50,067 nt of DNA from Chiloscyllium plagiosum (Eukaryota), in the NCBI RefSeq assembly GCF_004010195.1, contig NC_057754.1:3381527-3431593 (forward strand), given 5' to 3'. Each line of letters opens with the position of its first letter. The stretch's first letter is position 1. A program made the position numbers and the translations under genes. The notes below the pieces were generated by a model. It worked only from the letters and a program-made list of their open reading frames with translations. It was not told where the DNA came from and ran no database searches. Shown here in pieces: positions 5,678 through 44,905 of this stretch.

Positions 5678-6245
5678 GTGAGTATTTCACCCTGACTGCA
5701 GCACTAACAGCAAGCTCTGAGTGAATCTCAGGAACTAGCCCTTCCTGAGTAAATTGCCACTAGACTCTTTTCTTTCTCCCCCCCCCCCCCCCCCTCATCT
5801 TGCACCACCTGAAAGTGCAAAGATCTCATTCCTCAGAGGAATCTGCCTTTTGCCCGATGTGTCTGAGAGATGGTGAGCCCTGGTATGGCTCGGACACTCA
5901 ACTGCAAGGCACATCGCCACCTATGCTTAAACTGTGCCCTTCTTTTGCTGGCACCCACCAAGTGGGCACTGGGGTTGAGTTGGAGCACCCCGTGCACCCT
6001 CCCCACCCCATGCAGATTTTCGTTTTCCACTATGCCACCGATGGCCACTGAACCCCTTTGTTCCTCTCCCTTTCACCATTCCAACAGGCAGAGGGCTACT
6101 TCAGAATCAAGGATGGAGTCCAACCCTGTTCCAATGACCAGTACCAGAGAATCGGTCAGTGGAACACTGGATTTCTGTGCCCATCTCTTGCCAGGGAACA
6201 GACCTCTCCCAGGTAAAGCTAAGTAGCTGCAGAGAATTCTCAAAG

Positions 6246-6370
6246 GAGAAAGTGAGGTCTGCAGATGCTGGAGACCAGAGCTGAAAAATGTGGTGCTGGA
6301 AAAACACAGCAGGCCAGGCAGAATCTGAGGAGCAAGAGAATCGACGTTTAGGGCATAAGCCCTTCTTCAG
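6246..6370 (-). mobile_element. Non-autonomous Penelope-related hammerhead element, single arm
   Basis: Direct repeat gaattctcaaag at 6234-6245 and 6371-6382. Minus strand reads CTGAAGA-agggcttatgccc-tAAA-cGTC, so GAAA is mutated. Confidence 0.8.
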
Positions 6371-6615
6371 GAATTCTCAAAGTCAAGGTGTTGCCTGGGT
6401 GGGTTGCAACAGAAAGGGATTAGCCGGATTCCCCCGTCCAGGCCCCACAAAGTGGCCAGATTCTGCATCGGACTTTCACCTCCACCACAAGTGACCCGTG
6501 GGGTAGATAAGGTGAACTGGAGTGGTAAAGATGTGAAGGACCCCTGGAGTGTGAGTGTAAACAGAAGGAGGGCAGGGTGCCGGCCTGCTGGAGGTGTAGT
6601 TCTGCCTGCTATTTA

Positions 6616-7135
6616 TAGAGTCCTACAGCACAGAACAGACCCTTCGCTCCAACCAGTCCATTCAGACCATCATCGCAAACTAAACTAGTCCCACCTGCCT
6701 GCTCCTGGCCCATGTCCCTCCAAACCCTTTCCTATTCATGTACTTATCCAAATGTCTTTTAAACATTGTAATTGTACCTGCATCCACCACTTCCTCTGGC
6801 AGTTCATTTCACACACAAACCACCCTCTGTTTAAAAGAAAATGTATCCCTTTATGTCATTTTAAAATCTTTCTCCTCTTGCCTAAAAATATGCCCCCTTG
6901 TCTTGAAACTCCTCCACTTGTGAGGTATAGATAAGGTGAATGGCAGGTGTCTTTTCCCTAATAATTTTACAAATCTCTATAAGGTCAACTCTGAACTTGC
7001 TACATTCCAGTGAAAAAGTACCAGCCTCTCCTTATGTCTCAAACCCTCCATTTTCATCAACATTCCTGCTAAGTCTCTTCTGAACCTCTCCAGCTTGGTA
7101 ATAGCCTTTGTATAGCAGGGCAATCTGAACTGTCC
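6616..7135 (-). mobile_element. CR1/HER1-like LINE 3' fragment
   Basis: tagagtcctacagcacagaacagacccttcg tail and cctgcatccaccacttcctctggcagttcatt, both shared with other copies in the window. Confidence 0.7.
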
Positions 7136-7346
7136 ACTGAGCACAGAGTGGAAACCGCCAGTCTGTACTTGTCCCCAGGGGTCTTGGAGACTGTGGCTTT
7201 CAATAATTTGCAGAGATTGCTTTGGTGCTTATTGAACATACATTCTGCAGGGGCCATGGGACAGTGTGGCTTAGGCGAATGGGACTGACTGGATTGGTGC
7301 CCAGAGAAGATGGACTGAATGGCCTCTTACCTCACCATAGTCACAT

Positions 7347-7533
7347 CTTGGTCAATTGCGCCTGCAAAATGGTGGCTGTGTAGCCAACAATACCGTGTGC
7401 AATGGCTGTAATCACTCCTTGACCAATTCTGCCCACAAAATGGTGGCTGTTTTTCCAACAATACCGTGTGCAGTGGCTGTAATCACTCCTTGACCAATTG
7501 TGTCCACAAAATGGTGGCTGTATTGCAAACAAT
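7347..7533. repeat. 71-bp tandem repeat, about 2.6 copies
   Basis: caaaatggtggctgt recurs at 7365, 7436 and 7507. Confidence 0.9.
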
Positions 7534-7673
7534 GCTGCGCCCAGTGGCTTCGCTTCCTTGGCCATGAATTGGGGAATGAAACAGCCTAGGGCCGTGCCAG
7601 TTGCTATATCAATGCATAGTCTGTCTTCCTGTTGCAGTGTTCCCCTCCGGCTCTTCCATCAAAAGGTGCAGGC

Positions 7674-8144
7674 ATGGACCCAGACGTCTCTCTCATGGCC
7701 CACTGCCCGCCCACAGGGGGGCTGACTCAAGAGCAGGTCCAGGTGGAGATTTCGGCTGAGTATAACCGCCAGGTCCTCCACAGCCACGAGCAGAAGATCG
7801 CTGCCATCTGGCAGCAGAGGAAGCAGGAGAAGCCGTGGCTGTTCAACGGAGCCAAGTTCCGCATTCACTCGGCCCAGCTGGAGGGCGGGGAACTGCTGCT
7901 GCTGAGACTGGGCCTGACCTGCTACAAGGACTACCTGGGCACAAACTGGGCGCCCGAGGCCCGGCTCCTGCAGGAGCGGGGCGTGGCAGACTTTGGCGAC
8001 AGCCAGGCCTACCTGGCAGAGCCGCTGGGGGTCGGCGCCATGCTTCACACGGCCGACGACTGCTTTGTGTTCCTGAGGAGGAGCGAGCGGGTTGCTGAGG
8101 CAGCAGCGCAGGTGGACATTCCGGGAGGACACGCAGAACCCAAG
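7674..8144 (+). CDS. NUDT22: NUDT22 (UDP-glucose pyrophosphatase, Nudix hydrolase 22), coding exon 1
   Basis: MDPDVSLM...PWLFNGAKFRIHS...LRLGLTCYKDYLGTNW...YLAEPLGVGAML...FLRRS...DIPGGHAEPK matches the NUDT22 family. ATG at 7674, 157 codons, donor AAG|gtttgt, phase 0. Confidence 0.97.
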
Positions 8145-8210
8145 GTTTGTTCCTCCAAACAAAAAAATCAAAGCAATCGCTGAGGCAGCCACTCAACCCA
8201 ACTGGTCAGT

Positions 8211-8516
8211 GATTAGATTAGATTAGATTACTTACAGTGTGGAAACAGGCCCTTCAGCCCAACAAGCCCACACCGACCTGCCGAAACATAACCAACCCAG
8301 ACCCATTCCCCTACATTTACCCCTTCACCTAACACTACGGGACAATTTAGCACGGCCAATTCACCTAACCTGCACATTTTTGGATTGTGGGAGGAAACCG
8401 GAGCACACCCACGCAGACACAGGGAGAATGTGCAAACTCCACACAGACAGTCACCTGAGGTGGGAGTTGAACCCGGGTCTCTGGCGCTGTGAGGCAGCAG
8501 TGCTAACCACCGTGCC
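8211..8516 (-). mobile_element. HE1-like tRNA-derived V-SINE
   Basis: Reverse complement of ggcacggtggttagcactgctgcctcacagcgccagagacccgggttcaa (A/B boxes), V-domain core and (tctaa)n tail. Confidence 0.9.
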
Positions 8517-9286
8517 ATTGGTTTCCTCCCGTTCTATCTACATCACCTCTGCCTTTCAACACCCCCTTTTGGAAAGTGCTCCTTACTCAAGTCATCGCCC
8601 TGCCTCCTCTCCTTCATGGGAGGGCGGTGGTGCACCCAGGAGACCATTCAGCCTGAAATTCCGAAAGATTTTGATCAAGCGCTCTCAGAGAAGAGGCAGT
8701 TGAAAACAATAAGGGGTTTTTGACAGGGTAGAGAGGGGAAACTGTTCGCAGTGGCAGGAGGGTTGGGAGTGAGGGGGACACAGATTGAAAGCAGTTCACA
8801 CACGACGGAGAGGGGGAGATGGTTTAACACAGTGGCGTTCCGCGGTGTGGGAGGTGCTGTTTGTAAAGGGCGGCGAAGCACATTCAATTGGAAGTCGAGC
8901 TGGATAAATACTGGGAAAGATTACATTTGCAGCACAGTTGGGGAAGATCGAGGGAAAGTCGGTGCATATGAATGAGGGGCAGGAGTAGACCACTCAGCCC
9001 CTCTAAAGAGGCTGCTCCATCATTTGATAAGATCATGACAGTGTCATCTATCCACTTATCTGATGAGCCCCTTTATAAAAGCCCCCTGCCCAGGATTGGA
9101 ATCCAGGTCTCCCATGTGACACACAGACGTACTAACCTCTATACCGACACGGGACACATTGGAGAGCTCCTCTAGGACAGGCATGAAGGGGCTGCATGGC
9201 CTCCTCCAGCCTCATATCTTCAGCCATTCATGCCAGCCTCTGCCATCACCTTCAACATGAGCTATCCGCGCTCTCTCTCCTTACAG

Positions 9287-9394
9287 GCAGCCGTGAAAGG
9301 AATTCCGGAAGATTCCATTCAGGTGCAACACTTGTCGGGGGAGCTGGTGGTTCAGGAAATATTTTCCTCCATTCTGGGCGAGATCCGAGATGAG
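9287..9394 (+). CDS. NUDT22: NUDT22 coding exon 2
   Basis: ctctctccttacag|GCA...GAG|gtaaaa, 108 nt, AAVKGIPEDSIQVQHLSGELVVQEIFSSILGEIRDE, phase 0-0. Confidence 0.96.
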
Positions 9395-9735
9395 GTAAAA
9401 ACAGAAGATGCTTTGAACGTCCTCCGATTGGTGGGTGGGGGAGGGGACTCAATGCCGTCAAGCTAACTCCCTCGAGGGCACTGACAATTCCGTGGGGCAC
9501 ACTTTACCTGTTGCCCTCGAGAGCATACTGGCGAGGTAGCACACAGAGGGCAGTCAGGAACTAACCCTGTCGCTGTGAACCCAGAGTCACATGTGAGATC
9601 ATACAGAGAGGTTGACTTCTGTGGAGCAGTGATACGTACAAACATAAGAAATAGGAGCAGGAGTAGGCCATTTAGCCCTTGCCCTGTTATTCAGTAAGAT
9701 CATGGCTGATCTTTTAGTGGACTCAGCTCCATTGT

Positions 9736-10042
9736 GGGCGGCACGGTGGTTAGCACTGCTGCCTCACAGCGCCAGGGCCCCGGGTTCAATTCCCGCCTCA
9801 GGCGACTGACTGTGTGAAGTTTGCACGTTCTCCCCGTGTCTGTGTGGGTTTCCTCCGGGTGCTCCGGTTTCCTCCCACAGTCCAAAGATGTGCAGGTCAG
9901 GTGAATTGGCCATGCTAAATTGCCCCTAGTGTTAGGTAAGGGGTAAATGTAGGGGAATGGGTGGGTTGCGCTTCGGAGGGTCAGTGTGGACTTGTTGGGC
10001 CGAAGGGCCTGTTTCCACGCTGTAAGTAATCTAATCTAATCT
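9736..10042 (+). mobile_element. HE1-like V-SINE, near full length, inserted in a CR1-like fragment
   Basis: gggcggcacggtggttagcactgctgcctcacagcgccagggccccgggttcaattcc...gtaatctaatctaatc. Confidence 0.9.
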
Positions 10043-10971: not shown

Positions 10972-12125
10972 GCTCAGTGGTTAGCACTGCTGCCTCACTG
11001 CGCCAGGGACCCGGGTTTGATTCCAGCCTCTGGCGACTGTGTGGAGTTTGCACATTCTCCCCCTGTCTGCGTGGGTTTCCTCCGGTTTCCAAAGATGTGC
11101 AAGTTAGGATGGATTGGCCATGCTAAATTGATTAGATTCGATTCCTTACAGTGTGGAAACAGGCCCTTCGGCCCAACAAGTCCACACCGACCCTCCGAAG
11201 AGTAATCCACCCAGACCCATTTCTCTCTGACTAATGCACCTAACACTATGAGCAATTTAGCATGGCCAATCCACCCTAACCTGCACATCCCTGGGCACTA
11301 TGCACAATTTAGCATGGCCAATCCACCCNNNNNNNNNNNNNNNNNNNNNNNNNNNNNNNNNNNNNNNNNNNNNNNNNNNNNNNNNNNNNNNNNNNNNNNN
11401 NNNNNNNNNNNNNNNNNNNNNNNNNNNNNNNNNNNNNNNNNNNNNNNNNNNNNNNNNNNNNNNNNNNNNNNNNNNNNNNNNNNNNNATTTAGCACGGCCA
11501 ATCCACCCTAACCTGCACATCTTTTGACTGGGGGAGAAAACCGGAGCACCCGGAGGAAACCCCACGCAGACATGGAGAGAATGTGCAAACTCCACACTGT
11601 CACCCAAGGTTGGATTTGAGCCTAGGTCCCTGGTGCTGTGAGGCAGCAGTGCTAACCACTGTGCCACCGGGTTAAAATATCACGTGAAAAGGGAATGGGT
11701 CTGGGTGGGTTACTCTTCAGAGGGTTGGTGTGGACTTGTTGGACCGAATGGCCTGTTTCCACACTGTAGGGATTCTAAGTTCTTCAGCTGATGGATTGCT
11801 TGTGGCTGGCACGGTGGCTCAGTGTTTAGCACTGCTGCCTCACAGCGCCAGGGACCCGGGTGCAGTTTCAGCCTTGGGCCACTGTCTGTTTACACTGGTC
11901 TGCATGGGCTTTCCTCCAGGTGCTCCAGTATCCTCCCACAGGCCAGAGATGTGCAGGTTCGGTGGATTGGCCATGACTGAGTTGCCCCCTAGTGTGGATT
12001 AGCAGTAAAAGCGCTGATCAAAATGTAAAAACTGGGTTACAAGGCATGGGGCTAGATATAGGTGGGATGCTCTTCAGAGGTTTAATGTGGAATCGATGGG
12101 CCGATTGGCCTCTTTCAGCACTGTG
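10972..12125. mobile_element. Cluster of nested or adjacent HE1-like SINEs in both orientations around an N gap
   Basis: + head at about 10972-11125, - copies at about 11131-11667, + tail at about 11690-11775, and an older + copy at about 11806-12125. Confidence 0.85.
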
Positions 12126-13067: not shown

Positions 13068-13582
13068 GATTCCCAAGTGTGGAAACAGGCCCTTCGGGAT
13101 TAGAGATGCTGGAAAAGCACAGCAGTTCAGGCAGCATCTGAGGAGCAGTAAAATCGACGTTTCGGGCAAGAATACATTTGGTATTCTTGATAAAGGGCTT
13201 TTGACCGAAACGTTGATTCGACTGCTCCTCGGATGCTGCGCTTTTCCAGCACCTCTAATCCAGAATCTGGTTTCTAGCATCGTTGTTTTTACCTAAACAG
13301 GCCCTTCGGCCCAAACAGTCCACACCGATCCTCTGAAGAGTAACCCACCCAGACCCATTTCCCTCTGACTAATGCACCTAACACTACGGGCAATTTACCA
13401 TGGCCAATTCACCTGACACGCACATCTTTGGACTGTGGGAGGAAACCAGAGCACCCGGAGGAAACCCACACAGACACGGGGAGAATGTGCAAACTCCACA
13501 CGGACAGTCACCCGAGGCTGGAATTGAACCTGAGACCCTGGTGCTGTGAGGTAGCAGTGCTAACCACTGAGCCACCGTGCCA
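13068..13582 (-). mobile_element. HE1-like SINE, itself inside a CR1 3' fragment, interrupted by a hammerhead-type element
   Basis: SINE tail at 13068-13097 resumes at 13310. CR1 sequence lies on both sides (about 12975-13060 and 13593-13695). Confidence 0.85.
13098..13294. mobile_element. Fold-back Penelope-related element with degenerate hammerhead
   Basis: 15-bp TSD aaacaggcccttcgg at 13083-13097 and 13295-13309. Inverted arms run gattagagatgctggaaaagc...gcttttccagcacctctaatc. The core reads tTGATaA-agggcttttgacc-GAAA-cGTT. Confidence 0.85.
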
Positions 13583-15246
13583 TCCCAGCGTTGTGGACCA
13601 AATGCAGGCCAATGGGACTAGTTTAGTTTGGGAAACTTGGTGGGCATGGACGAGTTGAACCAAAGGGTCTGTTTCCATGCTGTCTGATTCTATGATCCAC
13701 GCTGTACTGCTGGGAAAAATGTTCGACTCATACACTCAGCCCTCCAAGAGAAACCCGATTCCTCCCCATCTGTCTTAAATGGGAGACCCTGTGTTCTGAA
13801 ACTGTCGTGCTAGTCTCTTTCACAAAGGGGAACCATCCCAGCATCCACCCTGTCAAGGCGCATTAGAATCTTGTACATCTCAATAGCATCACCTGTACCT
13901 TTTCAAGTCAGCCACTCCTTATGGAAAGCCAATTCCACTTTCTCCCCACCCTCCTGAGTTCCTCGTTAGATTTAGTCATGACCTGTATTGTTGGCTGTTC
14001 CCCTTGTTCTGCTCTTGCCTGCAAATTGGAAACGCCTGATTCTAACCCATCGAGCCCTCTCCTCATTTTAACAATCTTTATTCGGCTAAATCAAGACCAG
14101 GGAGCATTGTAGGACGGTGGGAGGAAAAAGGATGTGTGGGGCAACTGCTCTGCATAAAGTAGTTCATCTGTGGAATAGAATTCCAGAAGGAGTAATGGAG
14201 CGAGTGCAGTTACGATGTGTAAAAGCTATTTGGATAGGTTCTAGAATAGGAAATGTTTGGAGGGATGTGGGTCAAGCACAGACAGGTGGGACTGCTATCA
14301 TTTGGGATTGTGGTCAGCGTGGATTGGTTGGGCCGAAGGGTCTGTTTCTGAGCTGCTTTATTCCATAATCCCGAAACTATGAGAACTGCCCAGAAGTATG
14401 TATGGGGAAGGGTTGAACCCGAGTTGCTGATGTGAGGAGCTTGCCTCTTGTTTAGATTTGTTTCCGGAGCACTGTGGGTCATGGTGTAAGAATTCCACGC
14501 TGCCCTCTGGGTAATAATTCTGGGTGAGCTCCTCCTCTTGAAAGGAGAAAGGATTCCCTTGTGCTCTGTGGTGGTTTGACTCCATCATGAGGAGCCACAG
14601 CTCCCTGAGAGGTCGCCGTGGTCTCAGTGCAGCATCGATACCCCGTATCTGGGTGAAGGTTCCAACTCTCCCACAGGGACTGATTTCCCCACCGACACGG
14701 TGGGTTGGCTTGTGTCTGCTTCTGATTTTGAATAAGACGTGGGGCTTGTTGACCAGGCCAACTTCTGTTACACAGCCCTAATTGCCCCTCGTGAAGGCAA
14801 TAGCGAGTCTCCTTCTTGAAACACAACAATCTGCATCGTGCAGGGACGCCCACAATACTGTTAGGGAGAGATTCCCGGGATTTTAACCCAGCAACACAGA
14901 ACGAATGTCACTGTACTTCCAGGTCAGGATGGCGAGCGGCTGGGAGGGGAGCTTGCAGGGGATGGTGTTCTGCTGACCATGTCCTTCCAGATGGTGGGTT
15001 TGGAAGGTGCTGTTTGAGGAGACTTGCTGAATTTCTTCAGTGCATCTTGTCGAAGGTACACACTGCTGCTACTGAGTGTCGGTGGTGGAGAGAGTGTGGC
15101 GCTAATCAAGTGGGTGTGGGGGCCACTTATGGTGTCGGGCTTCTTGAGTGTAGTTGGAGCTGCCCGCATCCAGGGCAGGTTGGGTGGGGGGAATGTATCC
15201 CATCGTAGTGTAAATGTACCATCTGTGTGTGGGGCTTCTCTTCCAG

Positions 15247-15340: not shown

Positions 15341-15927
15341 GTAACAGGCTTTCAGCTCAGTGAGCCACGTGAGCTGGCACTTACATGTCTGATCGCCGAG
15401 CCTCGGTCAGCGCACATGGAGAGATTTTTATTCCTTTGTACTACCATGCATTGTGGGCATCCTCGGCCAGGTTGACATTTCTTGCCCGTGCCTAATTGCC
15501 CCTTCAACTGAGTGTCTCACTGAAGCCAATACAAAGGGCAAGTCAGACAGAATCAAATTGCCGTAGGTCTGGAGTCACTTGTAAGGACGGGAGAAAGAAC
15601 ACGAATGAACCACATGGGCATTTACACCAATTGAAGGTAGTTTCATGGCCAAGAGAGGATTCCATTTCAGATTTTTAAACATCAAGTTAAATTCTACCCA
15701 CCCCATGATTGGAGTCTGTGTCCCCAGAGCATTAGTCTGGCTCTCGGGATTAAAGGGACAGTGACTTCCACACTGCACCATCGCCTCCCCTACGTTGGTG
15801 GGTCAACATTACGAGAGGGAGGAGGTCATTTGCCCACTTGACGCTGTTCCAGCCCCATTCAGTTCAATCATTGCAGCTTCAAGGGAGGTGGCGACATTGG
15901 GGAAATATTACTGCCTGAGCTGGAAGG

Positions 15928-16062
15928 CTGCCGTACTGTCGGAGGGTCAGTGCTGAGGGGGCGCCGCACTGTCGGAGGGTCAGTGCTGAGGGAGCGCCAG
16001 ACTGTCGGAGGGTCAGCGCTGAGGGAGCGCCGCACTGTCGGAGGGTCAGCGCTGAGGGAGCA
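15928..16062 (+). repeat. 33-bp minisatellite, about 4 copies; same family as 39670-40992
   Basis: Unit cactgtcggagggtcagtgctgagggagcgccg. Confidence 0.9.
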
Positions 16063-16111
16063 TCATGCTGATGTTGCAGCTAATACATTGAGGTTTGGCT
16101 GATTGTGTCTT

Positions 16112-16307
16112 GGAGAAAGTGAGGACTGCAGATGCTGGAGATCAGAGCTGAAAATATGTCGCTGGAAAAGTGCAGCAGGTCAGGCAGCATCCAAGGAGCA
16201 GGAGAATCGACGTTTCGGGCANNNNNNNNNNNNNNNNNNNNNNNGATTCTCCTGCTCCTTGGATGCTGCCTGACCTGCTGCGCCTTTCCAGCAACACATT
16301 TTCAGCT
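16112..16307. mobile_element. Fold-back Penelope-related hammerhead-family element; centre is an N gap
   Basis: TSD ctgattgtg(t/c)cttg at 16099-16112 and 16308-16321. Inverted arms, and the shared end ggagaaagtgaggactgcagatgctgg. Confidence 0.85.
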
Positions 16308-16578
16308 CTGATTGTGCCTTGCCAGACATGTTAAGTTGTGGTTAATAAGGGTCATGGCAGGGGCGGTTTGGTCTGTTACTGCTTTAAAGAGCCAGTGAAT
16401 CGATAGTTGTGCCGAATTCTGATTCCCTTGACTCAGCTGCTGGGTTCTGCGATGTGGTCCATTAATGCCTGGCTGCTGGCAGCATTGTCCCTGGCCTTCA
16501 CCTCAGCGATTGCACTGAGAGATTATGTTTCCATCACCCTGTGACAATGGGAGGAGTGGGCAGGCACTATGGGAATGA

Positions 16579-16662
16579 CGGCTCATGCCCGAAACGTCGA
16601 TTCTCCTGCTCCTTGGATGCTGCCTGACCTGCTGCGCTTTTCCAGCAACGCATTTTCAGCTT
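16579..16662 (+). mobile_element. Truncated hammerhead-family element (3' half of the motif only)
   Basis: 9-bp TSD tgggaatga at 16570-16578 and 16663-16671. Contains gcccGAAAcGTCgattctcctgctcc but lacks CTGAnGA. Confidence 0.8.
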
Positions 16663-16696
16663 TGGGAATGAAGGTCTGACTGCCTGTTTTTTGCAG

Positions 16697-30577: not shown

Positions 30578-33500
30578 CCCCATCTCTCTCTCTCACCCTG
30601 AGGAGCAGGGACCCTGTCCGATTACACCCTTCTCTCAGATCTTGGGGATCACTAAACAGTGATCAGGAACAAGGACCTTCTCTGATTCCTCCTCTCTCTA
30701 ACCCTGGGGATCACTGGACAGCGATCAGGAGCAGGGACCTTGTCTGATTCCCCCTCTCTCTCTAACCCTATGGATCACTGGACAGTGATCAGGAGCAGGG
30801 ACCCTGTCTGATTCCCCCTCTCTCTCTAACCCTATGGATCACTGGGCAGTGATCAGGAACTGTGAATAATTCTACCTCTCTCGCTAACCCTGGGGATCAC
30901 TGGACCGTGATCAGGAGCAGGGACCCTGTCTGATTACCCCTCTCCCTCTAACCCTATGGATCACAGGGCAGTGATCAGGAGCAGGGACCTTGTCTGATTC
31001 CCCCTCTCACTCTCTAACCCTGGGGATCACTGGACAGTGATCAGGAGCAGAACACCTGTCTGATTACCCCTCTCTAACCCTATGGATCACAGGGCAGTGA
31101 TCAGTAACTGTGTCTAATTCCACCTCTCTCTCTAACCCTGGGGATCACTGAACAGTGATCACCAGCAGGGACCCTGTCTGATTACCTCTCTCCCTCTAAC
31201 CCTGGGGATCACTGGACAGTGATCAGGAGCAGAAACCCTGTCTTATTCCCGCTCTCTCTCTAACCCTGAGGATCACTGGACAGTGATCAGGAGCAGAGCC
31301 CCTGTCTGATTGCCCCTCTCCCTCTAACCCTGGGGATCACTGGACAGTGATCAGGAGCAGAAACCCTGTCTTATTCCCCCTCTCTCTCTAACCCTGAGGA
31401 TCACTGGACAGTGATCAGGAGCAGGGCCCCTGTCTGATTACCCCTCTCTCTCTAACTCTGGGGATCACTAGACAGTAATCAGTAGCAGAAACCCTGTCTT
31501 ATTACCCCTCTCTCTCTAACCCTGGGGATCACTGAACAATGATCAGGAGCAGAGCCCCTGTCTGATTCCCCCTCTCTCTCTAACCCTGGGGATCACTGGG
31601 CAGTGATCAGGAGCAGGGACCCTGTCTGATTACCCCTCTCCCTCTAACCCTATGGATCACTGGGCAGTGATCAGGAGCAGGGACCCTGTCTGATTCCCCC
31701 TCTCACTCTCTAACCCTGGGGATCACTGGACAGTGATCAGGAGCAGAAACCCTGTCTTATTACCCCTCTCCCTCTAACCCTGGGGATCACTGGACAGTGA
31801 TCAGGAGCAGGGACCCTGTCTAATTACCCCTCTCCCTCTAACCCTGGGGATCACTGGACAGTGATCAGGAGCAGAAACCCTGTCTTATTCCCCCTCTCTC
31901 TCTCACCCTGAGGATCACTGGACAGTGATCAGGAGCAGAGCCCCTGTCTGATTGCCCCTCTCTCTCTAACCCTAGGGATTACAGGGCAGTGATCAGGAGC
32001 AGGGACCCTGTCTGATTTCCCCTCTCACTCTCTAACCCTGGGGATCACTGGGCAGTGATCAGGAACAGGGACCCTGTCTGATTACCCCTCTCTCTCTCTC
32101 TAACCATGAGGTTCACTGGGCAGTGATCAGGAGCAGAAACCCTGTCCGATAACCCCCTCCCTCTAACCCTGGGGATCACTGGACAGTGATCAAGAGCAGA
32201 AACCCTGTTTGATAACCCCCCTCTCTAACCCTATGGATCACTGGGCAGTGATCAGGAGCAGGGACCGTGTCTAATTCCACCTCTCTCTCTAACCCTGGGG
32301 ATCACTGGACAGTGATCAGGAGCAGAAACCCTGTCTGATAACCCCCCTCTCTAACCCTGGGGATCACTGGACAGTGATCAGGAGCAGAACCCCTGTCTGA
32401 TTCCTCCTCTCACTCTCTAACCCTGGGGATCACTGGGCAGTGGTCAGGAGCAGAAACCCTGTCTGATTCCCCTTCTCTAATCCTGGGGATCACTGGGCAG
32501 TGATCTGGAACAGGGACCCTGTCTGATTACTCCTCTCCCTCTAACCCTGGGGATCACTGGGCAGTGATCAGGAGCGGAAACCCTGTCTGTTTCCCCCTCT
32601 CTCTCTAACCCTGGGGATCACTGGGCAGTGATCAGGAGCAGAAACCCTGTCTGATAACCCCTCTCTCTCTCTAACCCTGGGGATCACTGGACAGTGATCA
32701 CCAGCAGGGACCCTGTCTGATTACCCCTCCCCCTCTAACCCTGGGGATCACTGGACAGTGATCAGGAGCAGAAACCCTGTCTGATTCCCCCTCTCTCTCT
32801 ACCCTGGGGATCACTGGATAGTGATCAAGAGCAGAGCCCCTGTCTGATTCCCCCTCTCTCTCTAACCCTATGGATCAATGGGCAGTGATCAGTAACAGGG
32901 ACTGTGTCTAATTCCATCTCTCTCTCTAACCTGGGGATCACTGGACAGTGATCACCAGCAGGGACCCTGTCTGATTACCCCTCCCCCTCTAACCCTGGGG
33001 ATCACTGGACAGTGATCAGGAGCAGAGCCCCTGTCTGGTTCCCCCTCTCTCTCTAACCCTGGGGATCACTGGACAGTGATCAGGAGCAGGGACCCTGTCT
33101 GATTACCCCTCTCCCTCTAACCCTATGGATCACTGGGCAGTGATCAGGAGCAGGGACCCTGTCTGATTCCCCCTCTCACTCTCTAACCTGGGGGATCACT
33201 GGACAGTGATCAGGAGCAGGGACCCTGTCTGATTACCCCTCTCCCTGTAACCCTATGGATCACTGGGCAGTGATCAGGAGCAGAGCCCCTGTCTGATTCC
33301 CCCTCTCACTCTCTAACCCTGGGGATCACTGGGCAGTGATCAGGAGCAGGGACCCTGCCTGATTACCCCTCTCCCTCTAACCCTGGGGATCACTGGACAG
33401 TGATCAGGAGCAGAAAACCTGTCTTATTACCCCTCTCTCTCTAACCCTGGGGATCACTGGACAGTGATCAGGAGCAGAATCCCTGTCTGATTACCCCTCT

Positions 33501-34790
33501 CCCTCTAACCCTGGGGATCACTGGACAGTGATCAGGAGCAGAAACCCTGTCTTATTCCCCCTCTCTCTCTAACCCTGGGGATCACTGGACAGTGATCAGG
33601 AGCAGAGCCCCTGTCTGATTGCCCCTATCTCTCTCACCCTAGGGATCACTGGGCAGTGATCAGGAGCAGGGACCCTGCCTGATAACCCCTCTCCCTCTAA
33701 CCCTGGGGATCACTGGACAGTGATCAGGAGCAGAAACCCTGTCCGATTACCCCCCTCTCTCTCTAACCCTATGGATCACTGGGCAGTGATCAGGAGCAAG
33801 GACTGTGTCTAATTCCCCACCTCTCTCTAACCCTGGGGATCACTGGACAGTGATCAGGAGCAGAAACCCTGTCTGATGCCCCCTCTCACTCTCTAACCCT
33901 GGGGATCACTGGGCAGTGATCAGGAGCAGAAACCCTGTCTGATTCCCCCTCTCTCTCTAACCCTGGGGATCACTGGGCAGTGATCAGGAGCAGACACCCT
34001 GTCTGATAACCCCCCTCTGTAACCCTGGGGATCACTGGGTAATGATCAGGAACAGGGACCCTGTCTGATGACCCCTCTCTCTCTCTAACCCTGGGGTTCA
34101 CTGGGCAGTGATCAGGAGCAGAAACCCTGTCTGATGCCCCCTCTCACTCTCTAATCCTGGGGATCACTGGGCAGTGATCTGGAGCAGAAACCCTGTCTGA
34201 TTCCCCCTCTCTCTCTAACCCTGGGGATCACTGGGCAGTGATCAGGAGCAGAAACCCTGTCTGATAACCCCCCTCTCTAACCCTGGGGATCACTGGGTAA
34301 TGATCAGGAACAGGGACCCTGTCTGATTACCCCTCTCTCTCTCTAACCCTGGGGATCACTGGACAGTGATCAGGAGCAGGAACCCTGTCTGATTCCCCCT
34401 CTCTCTCTAATCCTATGGATCACTGGGCAGTGATCAGGAGCAGGGACCCTGTCTAATTCCACCTCTCTCTCTAACCCTGGGGATCACTGGACAGTGATCA
34501 GGAGCAGGGACCCTGTCTGATTACCCCTCTCTCTCTAAGGAGAAAGTGAGGTCTGCAGATGCTGGAAGATCAGAGCTGAAAATGTGTTGCTGGAAAAGCG
34601 CAGCAGGTCAGGCAGCAACCAGGGAACAGGAGAATCGACGTTTCGGGCATAAAGAAAGCCCGAAACGTCGATTCTCCTGTTCCCTGGATGCTGCCTGACC
34701 TGCTGTGCTTTTCCAGCAACACATTTTCAGCCCCTCTCTCTCTAACCCTGGGGCTCACTGGACAGTGATCAAGAGCAGGATTTCTGTTCA
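30578..34790. repeat. Satellite of about 64 bp (units about 62-67 bp), roughly 60 copies
   Basis: Unit taaccctggggatcactggacagtgatcaggagcagggaccctgtctgattacccctctccctc. Confidence 0.97.
34539..34730. mobile_element. Fold-back hammerhead-family element inserted in the satellite
   Basis: 15-bp TSD cccctctctctctaa at 34524-34538 and 34731-34745. Near-perfect inverted arms. The centre (ataaagaaa) lacks CTGAnGA. Confidence 0.9.
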
Positions 34791-34845
34791 ATTCTCCCCC
34801 TCTCCTTCCCTTAGAGGCACTGAGGCCAGATAGAGTTTTGTTACC

Positions 34846-35104
34846 TTCCCATCTATCTGCTCCACCCTCCTCTCTGACCTATCACTTTCACCCCCACCTC
34901 CATCTACCTGTTACATTCCCAGTTATTCCGCATTCCCATGCCCTCCCATTTATCTCTCAGCCCCCTGACCCACATGCCTCGTTCCTGATGAAGGACTTAC
35001 GGCCGAAACATCGATTCTCCTGCTCCTTGGATGCTGCCTGACCTGTGTGCTTTTTCAGCACCACATTCTTGACTATGATCTCAAGCATCTGCAGTCCTTT
35101 CTCC
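34846..35104 (+). mobile_element. Longer Penelope-related 3' fragment with hammerhead motif
   Basis: Imperfect TSD tagagt(t/a)ttgt(t/a)acc at 34831-34845 and 35105-35119. CTGATGA-aggacttacggcc-GAAA-cATC at 34985-35012. Ends in ctgcagtcctttctcc, the reverse complement of the family end. Confidence 0.75.
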
Positions 35105-35623
35105 TAGAGTATTGTAACCAGTTGGAATCAGATCTCTGAGCTGCAAGGAGATAAATAAGCATATGTTGCCATCTTGCCAATCTTCACTGTCGGTGGTTGG
35201 CATGGAGCAGAAATCATTCACCAGGCACTGGTTCTTCAGGGCAGATTCCAAGAGTGTCCAAATGTCAAGCTGACTGTTGTGGAATCATACAATGCAAAGG
35301 AGACCACTTCTGTACCATACTCTCTCTCTCTCTCTCCATGTGTTAAATGATTGGATAGGGTGGAATGCGGGGAAACTGGCTAGCTGAGTGACTGTTAAAA
35401 TGTGAGGGTGTCAGAGCTCCAACCCAGGACCACCGTTACAAATGACTGGGCCTGCTGAATACTTCCAAGGGATCTTCATCTGATCACAGCTTCCTCACCC
35501 TAAAAGGAAAGGGTTACGCCCAACACAAGGTGCTCAAATAACACAGCAGCCTGAAGGGGTACCACAAAAAATTAACCATAAAACATTGCACCGCCTTCAG
35601 AGTCTGAGTGCCTCATTGATGTT

Positions 35624-37036
35624 CTCAGGGTGACCTGTCCTCACGGTGACCTGTCATCATGCTGATCTGTCATCACGGTGGCATGTCCTCACGGTGACCT
35701 GTCCTCAGGGTGACCTGTCCTCATGGTGACCTGTCATCACGGTGACATGCCCTCACAGTGACCTGTCATCATGGTGACCTGTCCTCACGGTGACCTGTCA
35801 TCATGGTGACCTGTCATTACGGTGACCTGACCTCACGGTGAACTGTCATCAGGGTGACCTGTCCTCACAGTGACCTGACCTCACAGTGACTTGTCATCAC
35901 AGTGACCTGACCTCACGGTGACCTGCCCTCACAGTGACCTGACCTCACGGTGACCTGACCTCACGGTGATTTGCCCTCACAGTGATCTGTCCTCACAGTG
36001 ACCTGACCTCACGGTGACCTGTCATCACAGTGACCTGACCTCACGGTGACCTGTTCTCACAGTGACCTGTCTTCACAGTAACCTGTCCTCACAGTGACCT
36101 GACCTCACAGTGATCTTTCCTCACAGTGACCTGACCTCACGGTGACCTGTCTTCACAGTGACCTGACCTCATGGTGACCTGCCCTCACAGTGACCTGTCC
36201 TCACAGTGACCTGACCTCACGGTGACCTGTCATCACAGTGACCTGACCTCACAGTGACCTGACCACACGGTGACCTGTTCTCACAGTGACCTGTCCTCAC
36301 AGTGACCTGACCTCACAGTGACCTGTCCTCACGGTGACCTGACCTCACGGTGACCTGTCATCATGGTGACCTGACCTCACGGTGACCTGCCCTCACAGTG
36401 ACCTGTCATCACAGTGACCTGACCTCACGGTGACCTGTCTTCACGGTGACCTGACTTCACGGTGACCTGTTCTCACAGTGACCTGTCCTCACAGTGACCT
36501 GACCTCACAGTGACCTGTCCTCACAGTGACCTGACCTCACGGTGACCTGTCATCATGGTGACCTGACCTCACAGTGATCTGACCTCACGGTGACCTGCCA
36601 TCACAGTGACCTGGCCTCATGGTGACCTGTCCTCACCGTGACCTGACTTCACGGTGATCTGTCCTGACGGTGACCTGACCTCAGGGTGACCTGTCCTGAC
36701 TGTGACCTGACCTTACGGTGACCTGTCCTCAGTGACCTGACCTCACGGTGACCTGTCATCACGGTGGCCTGTCCTCACAGTGACCTGTCCTCACGGTGAC
36801 CTGACCTCACGGTGACCTGTCATCATGGTGACCTGACCTCACAGTGATCTGACCTCACGGTGACCTGCCATCACAGTGACCTGGCCTCATGGTGACCTGT
36901 CCTCACCGTGACCTGACTTCACGGTGATCTGTCCTGACGGTGACCTGACCTCAGGGTGACCTGTCCTGACTGTGACCTGACCTTACGGTGACCTGTCCTC
37001 AGTGACCTGACCTCACGGTGACCTGTCTTCACGCTG
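35624..37036. repeat. 16-bp minisatellite (tcacRgtgacctgWcc), about 88 copies
   Basis: Direct reading. Includes a block of about 230 bp duplicated at 270-bp spacing (36551 vs 36821). Confidence 0.97.
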
Positions 37037-37111
37037 ACTTATCTTTATGGAGTACGTCACAGGATTTGCCACTTGCTGAAGACTTCCATGTTAATCAGGT
37101 TCTCACAGTTG

Positions 37112-38760: not shown

Positions 38761-39574
38761 GGTGCAGTCAGTGAATGATTATAGAATCTGTCGGCTGCAA
38801 CTGCAAAGGACCTCTCTTTCGACACTTCCTTTCAAAGCTCACCAACGGCTTCAAAGGAAGAAGCAGTTGCATTTCTGTCGTGCCTTTCACACCTCAAAGC
38901 CATGGTCATTGAAGTATTTTGAAGGTGTGGCCAATATTGTCGTTACAGGAAATGATCTGTACCAGTCAGTTCCCACAAACAAGGATGTGATAAACAATCA
39001 GATCATCTATTCCTTTCGTACGTTCTGATCAGAAGTCATTGATCTGAAATTTTAATTCTGCTTTCTCTCTCTCACCGTCCTGAATGCTGTGTATTTCCAG
39101 CGTTTTCTGCTTTGTTTCAGATTTCCAGCTTTTGTACTATTTTGCTTTTATTTTAGTCCTGTTGTTTGAGGCCTGAACTGCAAGGGGATTACACTGGTTT
39201 CCTTAAAGTTGGCATCTTGAGAGGGTGGGGAAGGGCCTCTGTTTAATGTCTCATCTGATAGATGTTACTTCCAGCATCGTAGCACTGGTCTGGACGCCAG
39301 TGCTCCAGACTCTGGAGTGGGGGAGAGCGAAGTTTGGGTGACAATGTGTGTTGTCCTTTGCAACACCAAAATCCCAGGGTGGTTAACAATTCACACAGAA
39401 ATACTGAAGCAGTCCATCGCACTCTGGCACTGTACCCTATGGTTCTGAGATGATCATTCTGATATTTTGTTAGTCTCTACACCAATCTGAACACTATATC
39501 AAGGAACCAAAGGTCTGGCTCCTACACCAGTGAACATCCTGGCTGTTTCTCCCTACACCAACTCGCTTGGTCTC

Positions 39575-39670
39575 GACTTGAGTCAGAAGGTTGTGATTTC
39601 AAGCCACACTCCAGAGACTTGAGAATGATGCCAATACCAATGATGCAAACTGTTTAAACATGATTACTAC
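39575..39670 (+). mobile_element. Old Deu-domain-type SINE head fragment leading into the 33-bp array
   Basis: gagtcagaaggttgtgatttcaagccacactccagagacttgag resembles the recalled tRNA-like head of shark DeuSINE (SacSINE1). Confidence 0.5.
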
Positions 39671-40992
39671 GGAAGCGCCGCACTGTCAGAGGGTCAGTGC
39701 TGAGGGAATGCTACACCATCAGAGGGCCAGTGCTGAGAGAGTGCTGCACTGTCAGAGGGTCAGTGCTGAGGGAGCACTGCACTGTCGGAGGGTCAGTGCT
39801 GAGGGATCGCTGCACTGTCAGAGGATCAGTGCTGAGGGAGCAGGCACTGTCGGAAGGTCAGCGCTGAGGGAGCAGGCACTGTCAGAGGGTCAGTGCTGAG
39901 GGAGCAGGCAGTGTCGGAGGGTCAGCGCAGAGGGAGCGCCATACAGTCAGAGGGTGTTTGCTGAGGGAGCGCCACACTGTCAGAGGGTCATTGCTGAGGG
40001 AGTGCTGCCCTGTTGGAGGGTCAGTGCTGAGGGAGTGCCGCACTTTCGGAGGGTCAGTGCTGAGGCACCGCTGCCCTGTCAGAGTGTCAGTGCTGAGGGA
40101 GTGCTGCACTGTCAGAGGGTCAGCGCTGAGGGAGTGCCACACTGTCGGAGGGTCAGTGCTGAGGGTGTGCCGCACTGTCGGAGGGTCAGCGCTGAGGGAG
40201 TGCCACACTGTCGGAGGGTCAGTGCTGAGGGTGTGCCGCACTGTCGGAGGTTCAGTGCTGAGGGTGTGCCGCACTGTCAGAGGGTCAGTGCTGAGGGATT
40301 GCTGCACTGTCAGAGGGTCAGTGCTGTGGGAGTGCTGCACTGTCGGAGGGTCAGCGCAGAGGGACCACCGCACTTTCGGAGGGTCAGCGCTGAGGGGGCA
40401 GGCACTATTAGGGTCAGTGCTGAAGGGAGCATCACTGCATAAAAGGGTCAGTGCCGAGGGAACGCCACACTGTCAGAGGGTCATTGCTGAGGGAGCGTGG
40501 CACTGTCAGAGGGTCATTGCTGAGGGAGCACTGTACAGTCAGAGGGTCTTTGCTGAGGGAGTGCCACATTGTTGGAGGGTCAGCGCCGAGGGAGTGCCGC
40601 ACTGTCGGAGCGTCAGTGCAGAGGGAGCGCCGCACTGTCGGAGGGTCAGCGCTGAGGGAGCAGGCACTATCAGGGTCAGTGCTGAGTGATCATTGCACTG
40701 TTGGAGGGTCAGTGCTGATGGTGTGGACACTCTCAGGTCAGTGCTGAGGGGGCAGGCACTGTTGAAGAGTGAGTGCTGAGGGAGCACCGCACTGTCGTAG
40801 GGTCAGCGCTGAGGGAGCAGGCATTATCAGGGTCAGTGCTGAAGGGAGCATCACTGTGTGAAAGGTCAGTACTGAGGGAATGCCACACTCAGAGGGTCAT
40901 TGCTGAGGGAGCATGGCACTGTCAGAGGGTCATTGCTGAGGGAGTGCCGCACTGTCAGAAGGTCAGTGCTGAGGGAGTGCCGCACTGTCGGA
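39670..40992 (+). repeat. 33-bp minisatellite, about 40 copies
   Basis: Unit gagggtcagtgctgagggagtgccgcactgtcg, which produces spurious 11-aa repeat ORFs. Confidence 0.96.
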
Positions 40993-40999
40993 AATGTCA

Positions 41000-41317
41000 T
41001 TAGATTACTTACAGTGTGGAAACAGGCCCTTCAGCCCAACAAGACCACACCGACCCGCCGAAGCGCAACCCACCCATACCCCTACGTTTACCCCTTACCT
41101 AACACTACGGGCAATTTAGCATGGCCAATTCACCTGACCTGCACATCTTTGGACTGTGGGAGGAAACCGGAGCACCCGGAGGAAACCCACGCATGACACG
41201 GGGAGAATGTGCAAACTCCACACAGTCAGTCGCCTGAGACGGGAATTGAACCCGGGTCAACCCGGGTCTCTGGCGCTGTGAGGCAGCAGTGCTAACCACT
41301 GTACCACCGTGCCGCCC
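41000..41317 (-). mobile_element. HE1-like V-SINE
   Basis: Same family as 8211-8516, with a small internal duplication aacccgggtc x2. Confidence 0.9.
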
Positions 41318-43170
41318 ACAAAACAGGGTGAATCTTTCACAAGGCATGAATCTGAGACCTCATCTGCTTTCTCCAATGGCTGCAATAGGAAGAACATCAG
41401 GCGGGAAGTGTATCCAGTGTTGTGGAGCCAACATTCATTGCTCACAGCAATATCGTTGAAAAATTCAAGGGTCTAGGTCATTATGACCTTTCTGTTTGTG
41501 AGAGGTTGCCTTCCTCAAATTAGCTGCTGCCTTCCCTACAGTATGACACACAATTGGCTGCAAGATGTTTTGGTGGTCAAACCTGCTGTGATTGTGTGTG
41601 TGTTACTCACTCTGCCTTATGGGCTTAAATTTCCCTCCTCTTTCACACTCACTTCATCACAAGTTCCCTATTACCTGCTGAATGTGGATGCTAGCGTTTT
41701 TGTGATTCTTGCATAAAGACTCCCAAATCTCTCTGTGCTTTGGCTTTCTGCAGTCTTTCACCATTTAAATTATGTTGAAACTCCCCCTGCTCCCCCCTTC
41801 CACTCCTCTTCCATTGGTCTCCTGGCTTCTTCCCCTATACAGGGCTCAGAATGAGACCGGATTTAGCTTTGATGTACCCCCATGGTTGAAAGTACACAGC
41901 AGGCAGGAGCAGAAGGCATAAGAGTGAAGCCACAGCTTGTATGGACTGAACCTCCCCAAGCACTCAGACCCTTCAGAGGGGTAATGGCATATCAGTTATT
42001 TCTCGCTTCCGAAGATTCACCCTGTTTTGTAAGACGTTCGCCCTGTTTGACTGAGACAGTCACAGACACTTCGGATACACAAACTGTACCTGCCCAACCA
42101 CATAAATATTGTGGGCTGGGAATCCATCAGTAAACACTTCACCCCCCTGTCTCCCCAAAGCCTGTCCACCACCCAGGAGTGCGATGGAATACTCCCTGAG
42201 TCCCAGCAGTTCCTACAACACTCAAGGAGCAGGAGGAAGCAGGGTGCCTAACTTGGCACCACATCCGCAAACACTCACTCCCTCCACCATTGACGATGAG
42301 TGGGAGCAGTGTGTGGACCATCTACAAGATGCACTGCAGAAATTCTCTAAGGCTCCTTCACACTCACAACCCCATCATAGAAAAGACAAGAGCAGCAGAT
42401 GCATGGGAACACCATCCCCCTGCAAGGTCTATCCTTCTTTGGGAAATATTTTATCATTCCTTCATTGTCACTGGGTAAAAATCCTGGAACTCCTTCATTA
42501 ACGGCACTGGGTGGGTGTCCCTACAGCACATAGGCTGCAGCGGTTCTGGAAGGCAGCTCACCATTACCTTCTCAGGGGACAAGAAGGGATGGACAATATA
42601 TGCTGGCCTCACCATATGCTGTGAATGAAGTTTACAAATCATGGACCTGGTTACCGGGGTGGAAAAGAGATTGTATCCCCATTTGGCTAACTCCCAGAGA
42701 CAAGTGTCCAGTTTGTAGGCACCACTCATCCCTCAGCAACAGAAGGCCTTGTGTTTTCAAGCTCCACTTTGGAGACATGAGCTCAAAATGTCAGATTGAC
42801 ACTCCCAAAGCTGGGGCTGAAGGGGAGTAGCAGTATCAAAGATGTCATGCTTTCAGTCCCAGAACTGTTAGAGTGCCAGGGAATCCCATCATGGCTCTGC
42901 AAATGAGCATCTTGACTTAGAGCCATAGTCCTGCCCTTCCTCCCTAATTCTGCCTCTTGTTCCAATTGAAATAACCATCTGGAATGATTGAACCTGGCTC
43001 TACCACACTTTACGGCAGAGCAATCCTCACTGGGACCACTCACTGTGTGATGAGGGTTCTCTTTTACCCCACTCAACACATGTTTGCTTCTTTCACAAAC
43101 CACTTTAGATCTGTGCCCTTTTGTACCCATTTTGTTTCCAAGTGGGAACAGTTGTTCCCTATCTACTCTG

Positions 43171-43380
43171 GGGAGAAAGTGAGGTCTGCAGATGCTGGAG
43201 ATCAAAGTTGAAACTTTATTGCTGGAACAGCACAGCAGGTCAGGCAGCATCCAGGGAACAGGAGATTCGACGTTTCGGGCACAGGCCCTTCCTGAGGAAG
43301 GGCCTGTGCCCGAAACGTCGAATCTCCTGTTCCCTGGATGCTGCCTGACCTGCTGTGCTGTTCCAGCAATAAAGTTTCAA
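43171..43380. mobile_element. Young fold-back Penelope-related element with a perfect 87-bp inverted repeat
   Basis: Perfect 14-bp TSD ccctatctactctg at 43157-43170 and 43381-43394. Arms 43207-43293 and 43295-43381 surround a single G at 43294. Confidence 0.93.
43289..43322 (+). ncRNA. Intact minimal (type I) hammerhead ribozyme motif
   Basis: ttc-CTGAGGA-a-gggc ctgt gccc-GAAA-c-GTC-gaa. Stem I is ttc/gaa, stem II is gggc/gccc, and the ACGT stem III is palindromic. Predicted cleavage is after C43319. Confidence 0.8.
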
Positions 43381-43649
43381 CCCTATCTACTCTGCCCCAG
43401 CCTCGCTCAGTTTTTGAAAACTTCACTTGAAACTCCTCAGGTTCCTTCTGTCTGAAGAGAACCATCCCAGGTTCTTCAATCTATCCCGATCTCTGAAGTT
43501 TCTCAATCCTGGAATCATTCTTTCCAATGTACACGATACTTCAGCTGAGGTCTAACCAGTGTCCCGGACTGGTTCAGCACCAGCTCCTCACTCTTGTACT
43601 CTCTTCCTGAAGCCTGGAATTGTGATTGCACTCTCCAGCTAATCTGTGA

Positions 43650-44748
43650 AGTCGTCTTGAAGATGGAGTCACAGGTAGACAGGGCAGTGCCTTGAATGTA
43701 GGAGTTGGGAGGTCATATCACGGCTGTACAGAACATCGGTGAAGCCACTGCATTCAGTTCTGGTGTCCCTGCTATAGGACAGATGTTGTGAAACTTGAAA
43801 GGGTTCAGGAAAGATCTGCAAGGATGTTGCCAGGGTTGGAGGATTTGAGCTACAGGGAGAGGCTGAATAGGCTGGGGCTGTTTTCCCTGGAGGCTGAGGG
43901 GTGACCTTGTAGGGGTTTATAAAATCATGAGGGGCTTGGGTGGGGTGAATGGGCAAGTTTTGTTCTCCGGGGTGTGGGAGTCCAAAACTATAGCAGATTG
44001 TTATTAAACTGGAAAAAGTGTAGAAGAAATTTACAAGGATGTTGCCAGGATTCAAGGGCCTGAGTTATAGGGAGAGGTTGGACAAGCTAGGATATTTTTC
44101 TCTAGAGCGTGGGAGACTGAGAGGGAATCTTATAGAAGTGTATAAGATCATGAGAGGCAGGGACAGGGTGAATACACATTCTTTTTTCCAGGATTGGGGA
44201 ATCAAGGACTGAAGGGCATCAGTTTAAGGTGAGAGGGGAAAGAATAAAAGGGAACCTGAGGGGCAACTTTTTTTACACAGAGGGGGGGGACGCATATGGA
44301 ATGAGCTGCCAGTGGAAGTGGTTAAGGCGGGTACATTAACAACATTTAAAAGGCATTTGGACAAATACATGGATAGGAAAGGTTTAGAAGGATAAGGGGC
44401 TATAGCAGGGAAATGGGGGTTAGCATGGATGGACGTTTTGGTCAGCATGGACAAGTTTGGGTGGAAGGGTCTGTCTCCGTGCTATGACTCTAGAGGGCAT
44501 AGGTTTAGGGTGAGAGGGGAAAGATTTAAAAGGGACTTGGGCAACTTTTTCACACAGAGGGTGGTATGTGTATGGAATGAGCTGCCAGAGGAAGTGGTGG
44601 AGGCTGGTACAATTCAGAAGGCATCTGGATGGGTATATGAATAGGAAGGGTTTAGAGGCATATGGACCAAATGCTGGCAAATGGAACTAGATTAATGTAG
44701 GATATCTGACCAGCATGGACGAAGGGTCTGTTTCCGTGCTGTACAGTT
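43650..44748 (+). mobile_element. Nested CR1/HER1-like LINE 3' fragments
   Basis: The outer copy is interrupted at about 43992 and resumes at about 44491 (tagagggcataggtttagg). The inner copy ends in its own tail, ctatgactc. Confidence 0.85.
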
Positions 44749-44799
44749 CCACGTTTTTTTTGTGAATGACCGACCAAACCAGGCCAGTGTACCCTCTCA

Positions 44800-44905
44800 G
44801 ACACAAAAACAGAAGTGGCTGGAAAAGCTCCGCAGGTCTGGCAGCATCTATGGAGAGAAATCAGGGTTAATGTTTCGGGTCTGGTGATCCCCTTCCTCAG
44901 AACTG
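44800..44905 (-). mobile_element. Short element of a related hammerhead-bearing family
   Basis: Minus strand reads tt-CTGAGGA-aggggatcaccagaccc-GAAA-cATT-aa, flanked by a short direct repeat accctctc. Confidence 0.65.

Follow-up and report, generated by a model that had tools for sequence, protein, structure and literature searches.

Complex insertions of endonuclease-bearing (EN+) Penelope-like elements (PLEs) carry a tail of 30–40 bp at one end only, beside an inverted 5′-truncated copy (PMC8557442; PMC3846280); the origin of these inverted repeats and one-sided tails is stated as open (PMC8557442; PMC11167929). The anole PLE protein, a predicted dimer, nicks both strands and extends both, starting at two internal sites that flank the tail, and inserts equally well with a dead ribozyme, uncut RNA serving as template in vitro (PMC11167929). 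For the Penelope element of D. virilis a defined start and an internal promoter are described (PMC2377424), and an expansion of Penelope-like elements in a shark has been published (10.1101/443036; PMC8455134). Here we describe a family of short, hammerhead-bearing insertions in a 50,067-nt stretch of contig NC_057754.1 of the shark Chiloscyllium plagiosum (“the window”, whose positions serve as coordinates throughout). The family is very probably the terminus of an EN+ PLE, and most of its copies share a 5′ boundary that lies at the start of the hammerhead and not at its cut site.

All eight insertions named in a preliminary description, made without database searches, were verified at their positions (6246, 13098, 16112, 16579, 34539, 34846, 43171 and 44800, by which we refer to them). 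A profile built from the copies returned 12 strong arms in the window (E ≤ 1e-18), all in the same eight insertions; the other 11 of its 23 rows were weak, from E 0.008 up, and three of these look like old remnants. Weak older relatives of the 3′ part of the family, at 39084–39151 (E 0.2) and 19915–19950 (E 0.008), were excluded from the eight. The density amounts to 0.164 insertions per kb of non-N DNA or one per 6.1 kb, close to the roughly one per 6 kb first estimated. Four of the eight are fold-backs (13098, 16112, 34539, 43171), the other four consisting of one arm each (6246, 16579, 34846, 44800); their units measure 80–210 bp, and an open reading frame (ORF) between the inverted repeats is absent.

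Positions relative to the ribozyme are given on its sense strand, with +1 as the base that opens stem I. The 5′ strand of stem I occupies +1..+4, the core +5..+11 and stem II +13..+24, followed by GAAA and the cut between +32 and +33. The insertions and their target site duplications (TSDs) are as follows.

6246..6374, − strand: single tailed arm; 5′ end at +1 (6374), with a 4-nt overlap with the TSD (6234–6245 / 6371–6382, 12 bp, exact).
13098..13294: fold-back of a diverged subfamily, inside another repeat; TSD 13083–13097 / 13295–13309 (15 bp, exact).
13098–~13172, sense on −: tail-less arm of this fold-back, reaching +19.
13183–13294, sense on +: its tailed arm, starting at +1, with a U3/A8 core variant; a 9-bp snap-back hairpin lies at the junction.
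16112..16312: fold-back with a 23-N gap (16222–16244) that hides the junction; TSD 16099–16112 / 16308–16321 (14 bp, 1 mismatch).
16112–16221, sense on −: tailed arm of this fold-back, reaching at least +20.
16245–~16307/16312, sense on +: its tail-less arm, readable from +33.
16579..16659, + strand: single arm without a tail; its 5′ end lies in +8..+12, with 4 nt of microhomology to the TSD; TSD 16567–16578 / 16660–16671 (12 bp, 1 mismatch; 9 exact).
34539..34730: fold-back within a 64-bp satellite; TSD 34524–34538 / 34731–34745 (15 bp, exact); tailed arm 34539–34652 reaching +17, a 5-nt insert, tail-less arm 34658–34730 starting at +21; junction in stem II.
34846..35104, + strand: long single tailed arm with 135 nt of pyrimidine-rich sequence upstream of +1 (+1 = 34981; core C3 = 34985; cut site 35012/35013); TSD 34831–34845 / 35105–35119 (15 bp, 2 mismatches).
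34981..35016, + strand: minimal type-I hammerhead of the 34846 copy.
43171..43380: youngest fold-back; TSD 43157–43170 / 43381–43394 (14 bp, exact).
43207–43293 and 43295–43381: arms of this fold-back, 100% complementary over 87 nt, with a tail (43171–43206) on the left arm only; an 11-nt palindrome (+2..+12) forms the junction, and its centre base, 43294, has the sense reading of the tail-less arm.
44800..44904, − strand: single tail-less arm of a second diverged subfamily, with a longer stem II and a compensated stem I; 5′ end at +1 (44904), possibly 1–2 nt further; weak TSD 44791–44798 / 44911–44918 (8 bp exact by eye, or 13 bp with 2 mismatches).

Ten arms have a readable 5′ end, the two arms of 16112 having been left out of the count because the N gap hides their junction. 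These ends lie at +1 (6246, 44800 and the long arm of 13098), +2 (both arms of 43171), +8..12 (16579), +17 and +21 (34539), +19 (the short arm of 13098) and about −135 (34846). None is located at the GUC cut (+33), and nine fall within +1..+21, i.e. 11–32 nt upstream of it; counted per insertion, six of seven lie in this interval (p about 1e-4 to 1e-5 under a uniform null, a crude estimate). The inversion point is inside the hammerhead in three of the four fold-backs, the fourth junction being that under the N gap of 16112. The preliminary description had seen inversions and truncations gather at the hammerhead, which holds for the motif as a whole, but they sit upstream of the cut rather than at it. 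It had also suggested that RNA ends made by the ribozyme set these breakpoints, and this part is not supported: the copies extend across the cut site, so reverse transcription read uncut RNA through the hammerhead.

The same boundary appears in public reads. We aligned four runs, one of them from a second organism, to the long copy 34846 at 80% likeness (31,155, 29,561, 1,891 and 1,097 records aligned per run); the loose-end and joint results below concern 24 of 823 loose-end positions and 15 of 69 joints. A loose end at 34982 (+2) was among six positions listed in each of the four runs, with 546, 423, 167 and 26 records. Beyond it sequence agreement is 0.32–0.37, compared with 0.27–0.36 for simulated unrelated flanks. 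Loose ends at 35003–35006 yield a consensus that extends back to about +1 or −1, and none past that point. Raw RNA reads number 450 at +9 and 119 at +1, but 46 at the base that precedes +1 by 5 nt, where about 410 would be expected if only read ends thinned the coverage, and contig depth across the boundary drops to 11%, 4% and 6%. At 34844, 400 contigs continue upstream with an agreement of 0.67, so a longer parent exists; the upstream block reaches 1.4–8% of core depth in the four runs. The upstream motif derived from the reads has no match in the window. Throughout the family, the boundary thus falls where stem I begins, 32 nt upstream of the cut.

In both the main and the 44800 subfamily, whose sequences differ there, +1 lies in an initiator-like word, as judged against the initiator consensus. 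From this motif, +1 is probably a transcription start. A word resembling a downstream promoter element (DPE) lies 2 nt off the usual spacing of a DPE, and its distance shifts with the length of stem II; we set this reading aside, and the offset counts against a start at +1. A splice acceptor at +1 was rejected: a spliced template predicts a common upstream consensus, and the reads show none. In D. virilis Penelope, an intron ends at helix I (PMC4209133).

Several further observations weigh against a fixed start with read-through of the cut. We found no site where many molecules begin or end, the RNA run being a poly(A) single-cell library; no RNA on record was listed for the window itself, and a lesser peak at the cut is possible among the loose ends and joints beyond those listed. 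The sole opposite-strand joint listed (2 contigs) links +2 to +34, 1 nt from the cut, where a reference mismatch at +30 can halt alignments; no raw-read fold-back joint was among the joints listed. In 16112, the readable sequence of the tail-less arm begins exactly at +33, beside the N gap. At +1 and upstream of it the reference deviates from the majority, which limits the placement of the boundary to about 3 nt. Part of the loose ends at 34982 stem from diverged long copies, since in some contigs the upstream block is followed directly by that position, and contig counts over-represent unique junctions and thus overstate the share of the boundary.

A scripted TSD search, which tabulated the duplications as had been proposed, returned lengths of 12, 15, 14, 12, 15, 15 and 14 bp (0–2 mismatches) in seven of the eight copies and none for 44800; scores of at least 10 arise at 0.5% of 2082 random position pairs. 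Removal of the insert and one TSD turns the site of 34539 into a host satellite unit matched by 7 sibling units, and that of 13098 into a host repeat unit matched by 1 other copy. As first described, four copies (6246, 16112, 34539, 43171) open with a common terminal sequence and 34846 closes with its near reverse complement; this fixed end is the reverse complement of the ribozyme-sense 3′ end. There are, however, two such ends. The tailed 3′ end lies 97–98 nt after the cut in four copies (deletions shorten this to 92 and 80 in two more), and the tail-less one 61–63 nt after the cut in four arms of the main subfamily (58 and 69 in two diverged subfamilies). The picture of a fixed end and a variable fold-back is therefore right as to the recurrent terminus, but incomplete, as the outer end of the short arm is nearly fixed as well. 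The sequence between both 3′ ends measures 35–36 nt and occurs on one arm only in all four fold-backs; it is the PLE tail, and its size is inside the 30–40 bp of PMC8557442. Public reads contain the tailed end too, as loose ends at 35098 in two runs.

The insertions thus combine marks of EN+ PLEs: a tail at one end only (4/4 fold-backs), inverted 5′-truncated copies (4/8 inverted) with variable TSDs (12–15 bp in 7/8), and a minimal hammerhead in the pseudo-long terminal repeat (pLTR). Tail, TSDs, inversion and hammerhead together support the Penelope-like origin and RNA-based insertion proposed at the outset. Judged by TSDs and anatomy, the copies are very probably non-coding, pLTR-only insertions of a Penelope-like retrotransposon that arose through target-primed reverse transcription.

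A minimal-hammerhead descriptor matched five times in the window (four in this family, one in a second PLE family), compared with a mean of 0.02 matches in 100 shuffles. No Rfam hammerhead model matched at E ≤ 5, and Rfam miRNA models score the copies at E 0.0002–0.005, far under the gathering threshold. Stems I and II carry compensated changes between subfamilies, which argues that the ribozyme fold has been kept, and a palindromic ACGT is present in the hammerhead of most copies. Folding of monomers revealed no notable structure (5/5; z −1.3 to +1.1), as expected for dimer-dependent minimal motifs. The core at 13183–13220 in copy 13098 has U3/A8 in place of C3/G8, and U3 is also found in the adjacent snap-back hairpin. 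A compensated U3-A8 variant is known from Schistosoma PLEs (PMC4209133); seen in one copy only, the pair in 13098 could represent two chance transitions.

We also searched for a coding partner. An autonomous Penelope with the same terminal sequence had been anticipated, but protein searches with two readings of the unit linked no ORF for reverse transcriptase (RT) or GIY-YIG to the terminus, a point against the explanation favoured below. One candidate (E 8e-4), without a Pfam domain, was treated as chance. Pattern scans gave no hits in viral contigs, in metagenomes (long pattern) or in prokaryote genomes; the 119 loci from a short-pattern scan aligned over 41 nt at most and were likewise treated as chance. 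The partial head-to-tail tandem (pLTR-ORF-pLTR) is absent from the window, the longer parent being implied by the 400 contigs. The 3′ part of a different Penelope-like element lies at 1–1198, with an RT end, GIY-YIG (Pfam E 0.079; the Pfam scan covered four ORFs of the window) and a hammerhead-like motif at 1118. Its identity to proteins of Stegostoma tigrinum, of which one carries RVT_1, is 85–89%, which points to a shark host; it adjoins an old tail-like remnant at 1190–1243. Its RT/GIY-YIG fragment (1–960) belongs to a terminus other than that of the short family, and tblastn of the window with this fragment yielded no convincing further PLE fragments.

Compared with the EN+ PLE complex insertions (PMC3846280; PMC8557442), the shark copies share the head-to-head repeat, the 30–40-bp tail on one arm, the variable TSD, the junction palindrome and microhomology at 5′ junctions. 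They differ in their small size without an ORF between the repeats and, as far as those accounts describe, in that most 5′ ends fall at one fixed position, the hammerhead start. PAc, a Poseidon of Anolis carolinensis, resembles the family in its minimal hammerhead about 60–100 nt upstream of two 3′ ends that bound the tail and in its uncut template (PMC11167929). Unlike in PAc, no ORF start was found in the hammerhead of the shark family and the shark targets are not AT-rich; fold-back products fell outside that study. With metazoan PLE minimal hammerheads the family has in common the core boxes, an extra base before stem II, the G-C closing pair, palindromic 15.2/16.2, the lack of helix III and an occurrence mostly as dispersed single motifs or opposite-strand pairs, whereas its stem II is short (4–5 bp) and its ribozyme is predicted from sequence (PMC4209133). 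Animal non-LTR retrozymes, reported in one chondrichthyan, are likewise non-coding, pLTR-related and hammerhead-bearing (10.64898/2026.07.22.740005). They form head-to-tail tandems with a ribozyme per unit, whereas the shark copies are single or head-to-head and are not bounded by the cut site. We rejected a tandem retrozyme, as no head-to-tail tandem was found among the eight insertions. A literature search whose reach mostly excluded subscription papers turned up neither a description of this shark family nor one of a 5′ end fixed at hammerhead stem I. The element class is ordinary, and the fixed 5′ end is possibly unreported.

The explanation we favour, which we regard as somewhat probable, is that most copies are run-off cDNAs of the first ~95–130 nt of the RNA, with two-nick joining for the fold-backs. 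The PLE protein would nick the target with a 9–15-nt stagger, and cDNA synthesis would begin within the RNA at either of two fixed sites, which lie about 97 nt past the cut for tailed copies and about 62 nt past it for tail-less ones. The two fixed 3′ ends are observed; their identity as RT start sites is borrowed from the anole element (PMC11167929). RT would then read the uncut RNA across the hammerhead and run off at +1. One primed nick would give a single arm, closed by microhomology. If both nicks were primed, with one cDNA per start site, two strands of the same polarity would need joining, and pairing between them would require self-complementary stretches or a preceding snap-back. Such stretches, namely the palindrome round the core and stem II, would come from the first 24 nt of the RNA. 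On balance, we infer that the joining of two cDNAs produced the head-to-head repeat with a tail on one arm only. Inversions would thus lie within the hammerhead because it occupies the 5′ end of the RNA, not because of cutting, and most short copies are probably dead by-products of the 5′ leader of the parent element.

The junctions bear on this model. Within the first 60 nt, self-pairing is strongest in two stretches, +2..+12 and +12..+25, where 43171 and 34539, respectively, have their junctions. The centre base of 43171 agrees with the tail-less arm, from which the tail could not have been templated, whereas the junction loop or centre of 34539 derives from the tailed arm; centres taken from opposite arms are symmetric, as two cDNAs predict. 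This argument is drawn from two copies only, which counts against it. The tail-less single arms 16579 and 44800 exist, so the inner site primes alone, and in copy 13098 a run-off to +1 is followed by a snap-back of 9 bp and then by the other arm. The element at 1–1198 belongs to a second PLE family, which is also represented by a fold-back at 1764–2150, with a ~40-nt one-sided tail and a 17-bp TSD (2 mismatches); the inner 30 nt of its arms are far more divergent than the outer 115 nt, as though two templates had been copied. Its arms meet at points about 80 and 135 nt upstream of the hammerhead core. Since this family inverts away from the hammerhead, inversion does not require the ribozyme.

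It is unlikely, in our assessment, that the copies form a non-autonomous family resembling short interspersed nuclear elements (SINEs), in which a ~130-nt unit with an internal promoter and both RT start sites is re-mobilised in trans. The junction mechanics would be the same as for run-off cDNAs of a parent, and only the source RNA would differ. The low depth of the upstream block means that short units dominate; the Penelope promoter is internal (PMC2377424), pLTRs suffice in cis for mobilisation in trans (PMC3846280), and non-autonomous PLE derivatives are known (PMC8557442; 10.64898/2026.07.22.740005). The longer parent is abundant, however, with its 400 contigs upstream of 34844; tandem or nested short units are absent from the window, and the fold-back junctions differ from one another in all three readable copies. 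Furthermore, the anole protein needs RNA up to ORF position +172, past the main start sites at 111–118 (PMC11167929), so the inserted copies may lack the binding region.

Fold-backs might instead come from a single tailed cDNA that stalls at the hammerhead hairpins, primes itself and copies back, with endonuclease or annealing ending the copy at the tail boundary and +1 being a structural stop or an endonuclease nick (ATT). Arms within one copy share subfamily variants (0–4 mismatches in 55 nt), which fits a snap-back, one source locus or gene conversion alike, and the hairpin of 13098 points the same way. Self-priming at palindromes (PMC3846280) and endonuclease resolution of the tail (PMC8557442) have been proposed; the anole endonuclease favours ATT (PMC11167929), and the main subfamily reads ATT at +1..+3. 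Yet the inner site primes independently in 16579 and 44800, the centre base of 43171 is wrong for a tailed strand folding back, 44800 stops at +1 without ATT, and another ATT, at +34, has no loose end among the 24 of 823 listed. We consider this route quite improbable.

That cleavage by the ribozyme creates the RNA end where reverse transcription stops or folds back is largely refuted and, to us, very improbable. The clustering of breakpoints in the hammerhead, the +34 side of the one opposite-strand joint (2 contigs), the short arm of 16112 readable from +33 and the compensated stems are what it would lead one to expect. Against it, no readable end lies at the cut and all carry 12–32 nt from upstream of it, the second PLE family inverts elsewhere, and in the anole system ribozyme mutants leave in vitro insertion unchanged and RNA ends at the cut were not observed (PMC11167929). 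A terminal inverted repeat (TIR) DNA-transposon, i.e. a miniature inverted-repeat transposable element (MITE), named beforehand as the refuting alternative, would account for four near-palindromic copies with TSDs, but has next to no probability and is excluded by the variable TSDs of 12–15 bp, the unequal arms, the one-sided tail, the four one-armed copies, the three differing readable centres and the hammerhead.

The remainder of the window holds long open frames at 7620–8183 and 9176–9466 that resemble host-gene exons, the first without a Pfam match; they look Nudix-like. Tandem arrays occupy 30558–34780, 35528–36800, 39591–41025 and 47649–49359, with units of about 64, 16, 33 and 70 bp, and the 33-bp unit recurs at 15844–16075. 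A SINE-sized interspersed repeat is present in many copies (8216–8517, 9737–10041, 11130–11889, 13268–13585, 40993–41296), one of which hosts 13098.

Because short copies are very numerous and share one dominant 5′ end and two fixed 3′ ends, junction counts in one genome can separate the models of two primers, a snap-back and ribozyme-made ends. The near-palindromic copies are also liable to be misfiled by annotators as MITEs or microRNA precursors. We tentatively put forward, as a possibility, that the copies are a very large natural “strong-stop” record: RT would start internally on the first ~130 nt of a capped mRNA whose +1 is that of the hammerhead, the run-off cDNA would integrate, and dimer-primed cDNAs would join at the ribozyme palindromes. 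If true, this would account together for three unexplained traits of Penelope elements, namely the inverted pLTR, the tail on one side only and the palindromes at the junctions, and the ribozyme would be a 32-nt decapping switch at the extreme 5′ end of the mRNA, not the maker of template ends.

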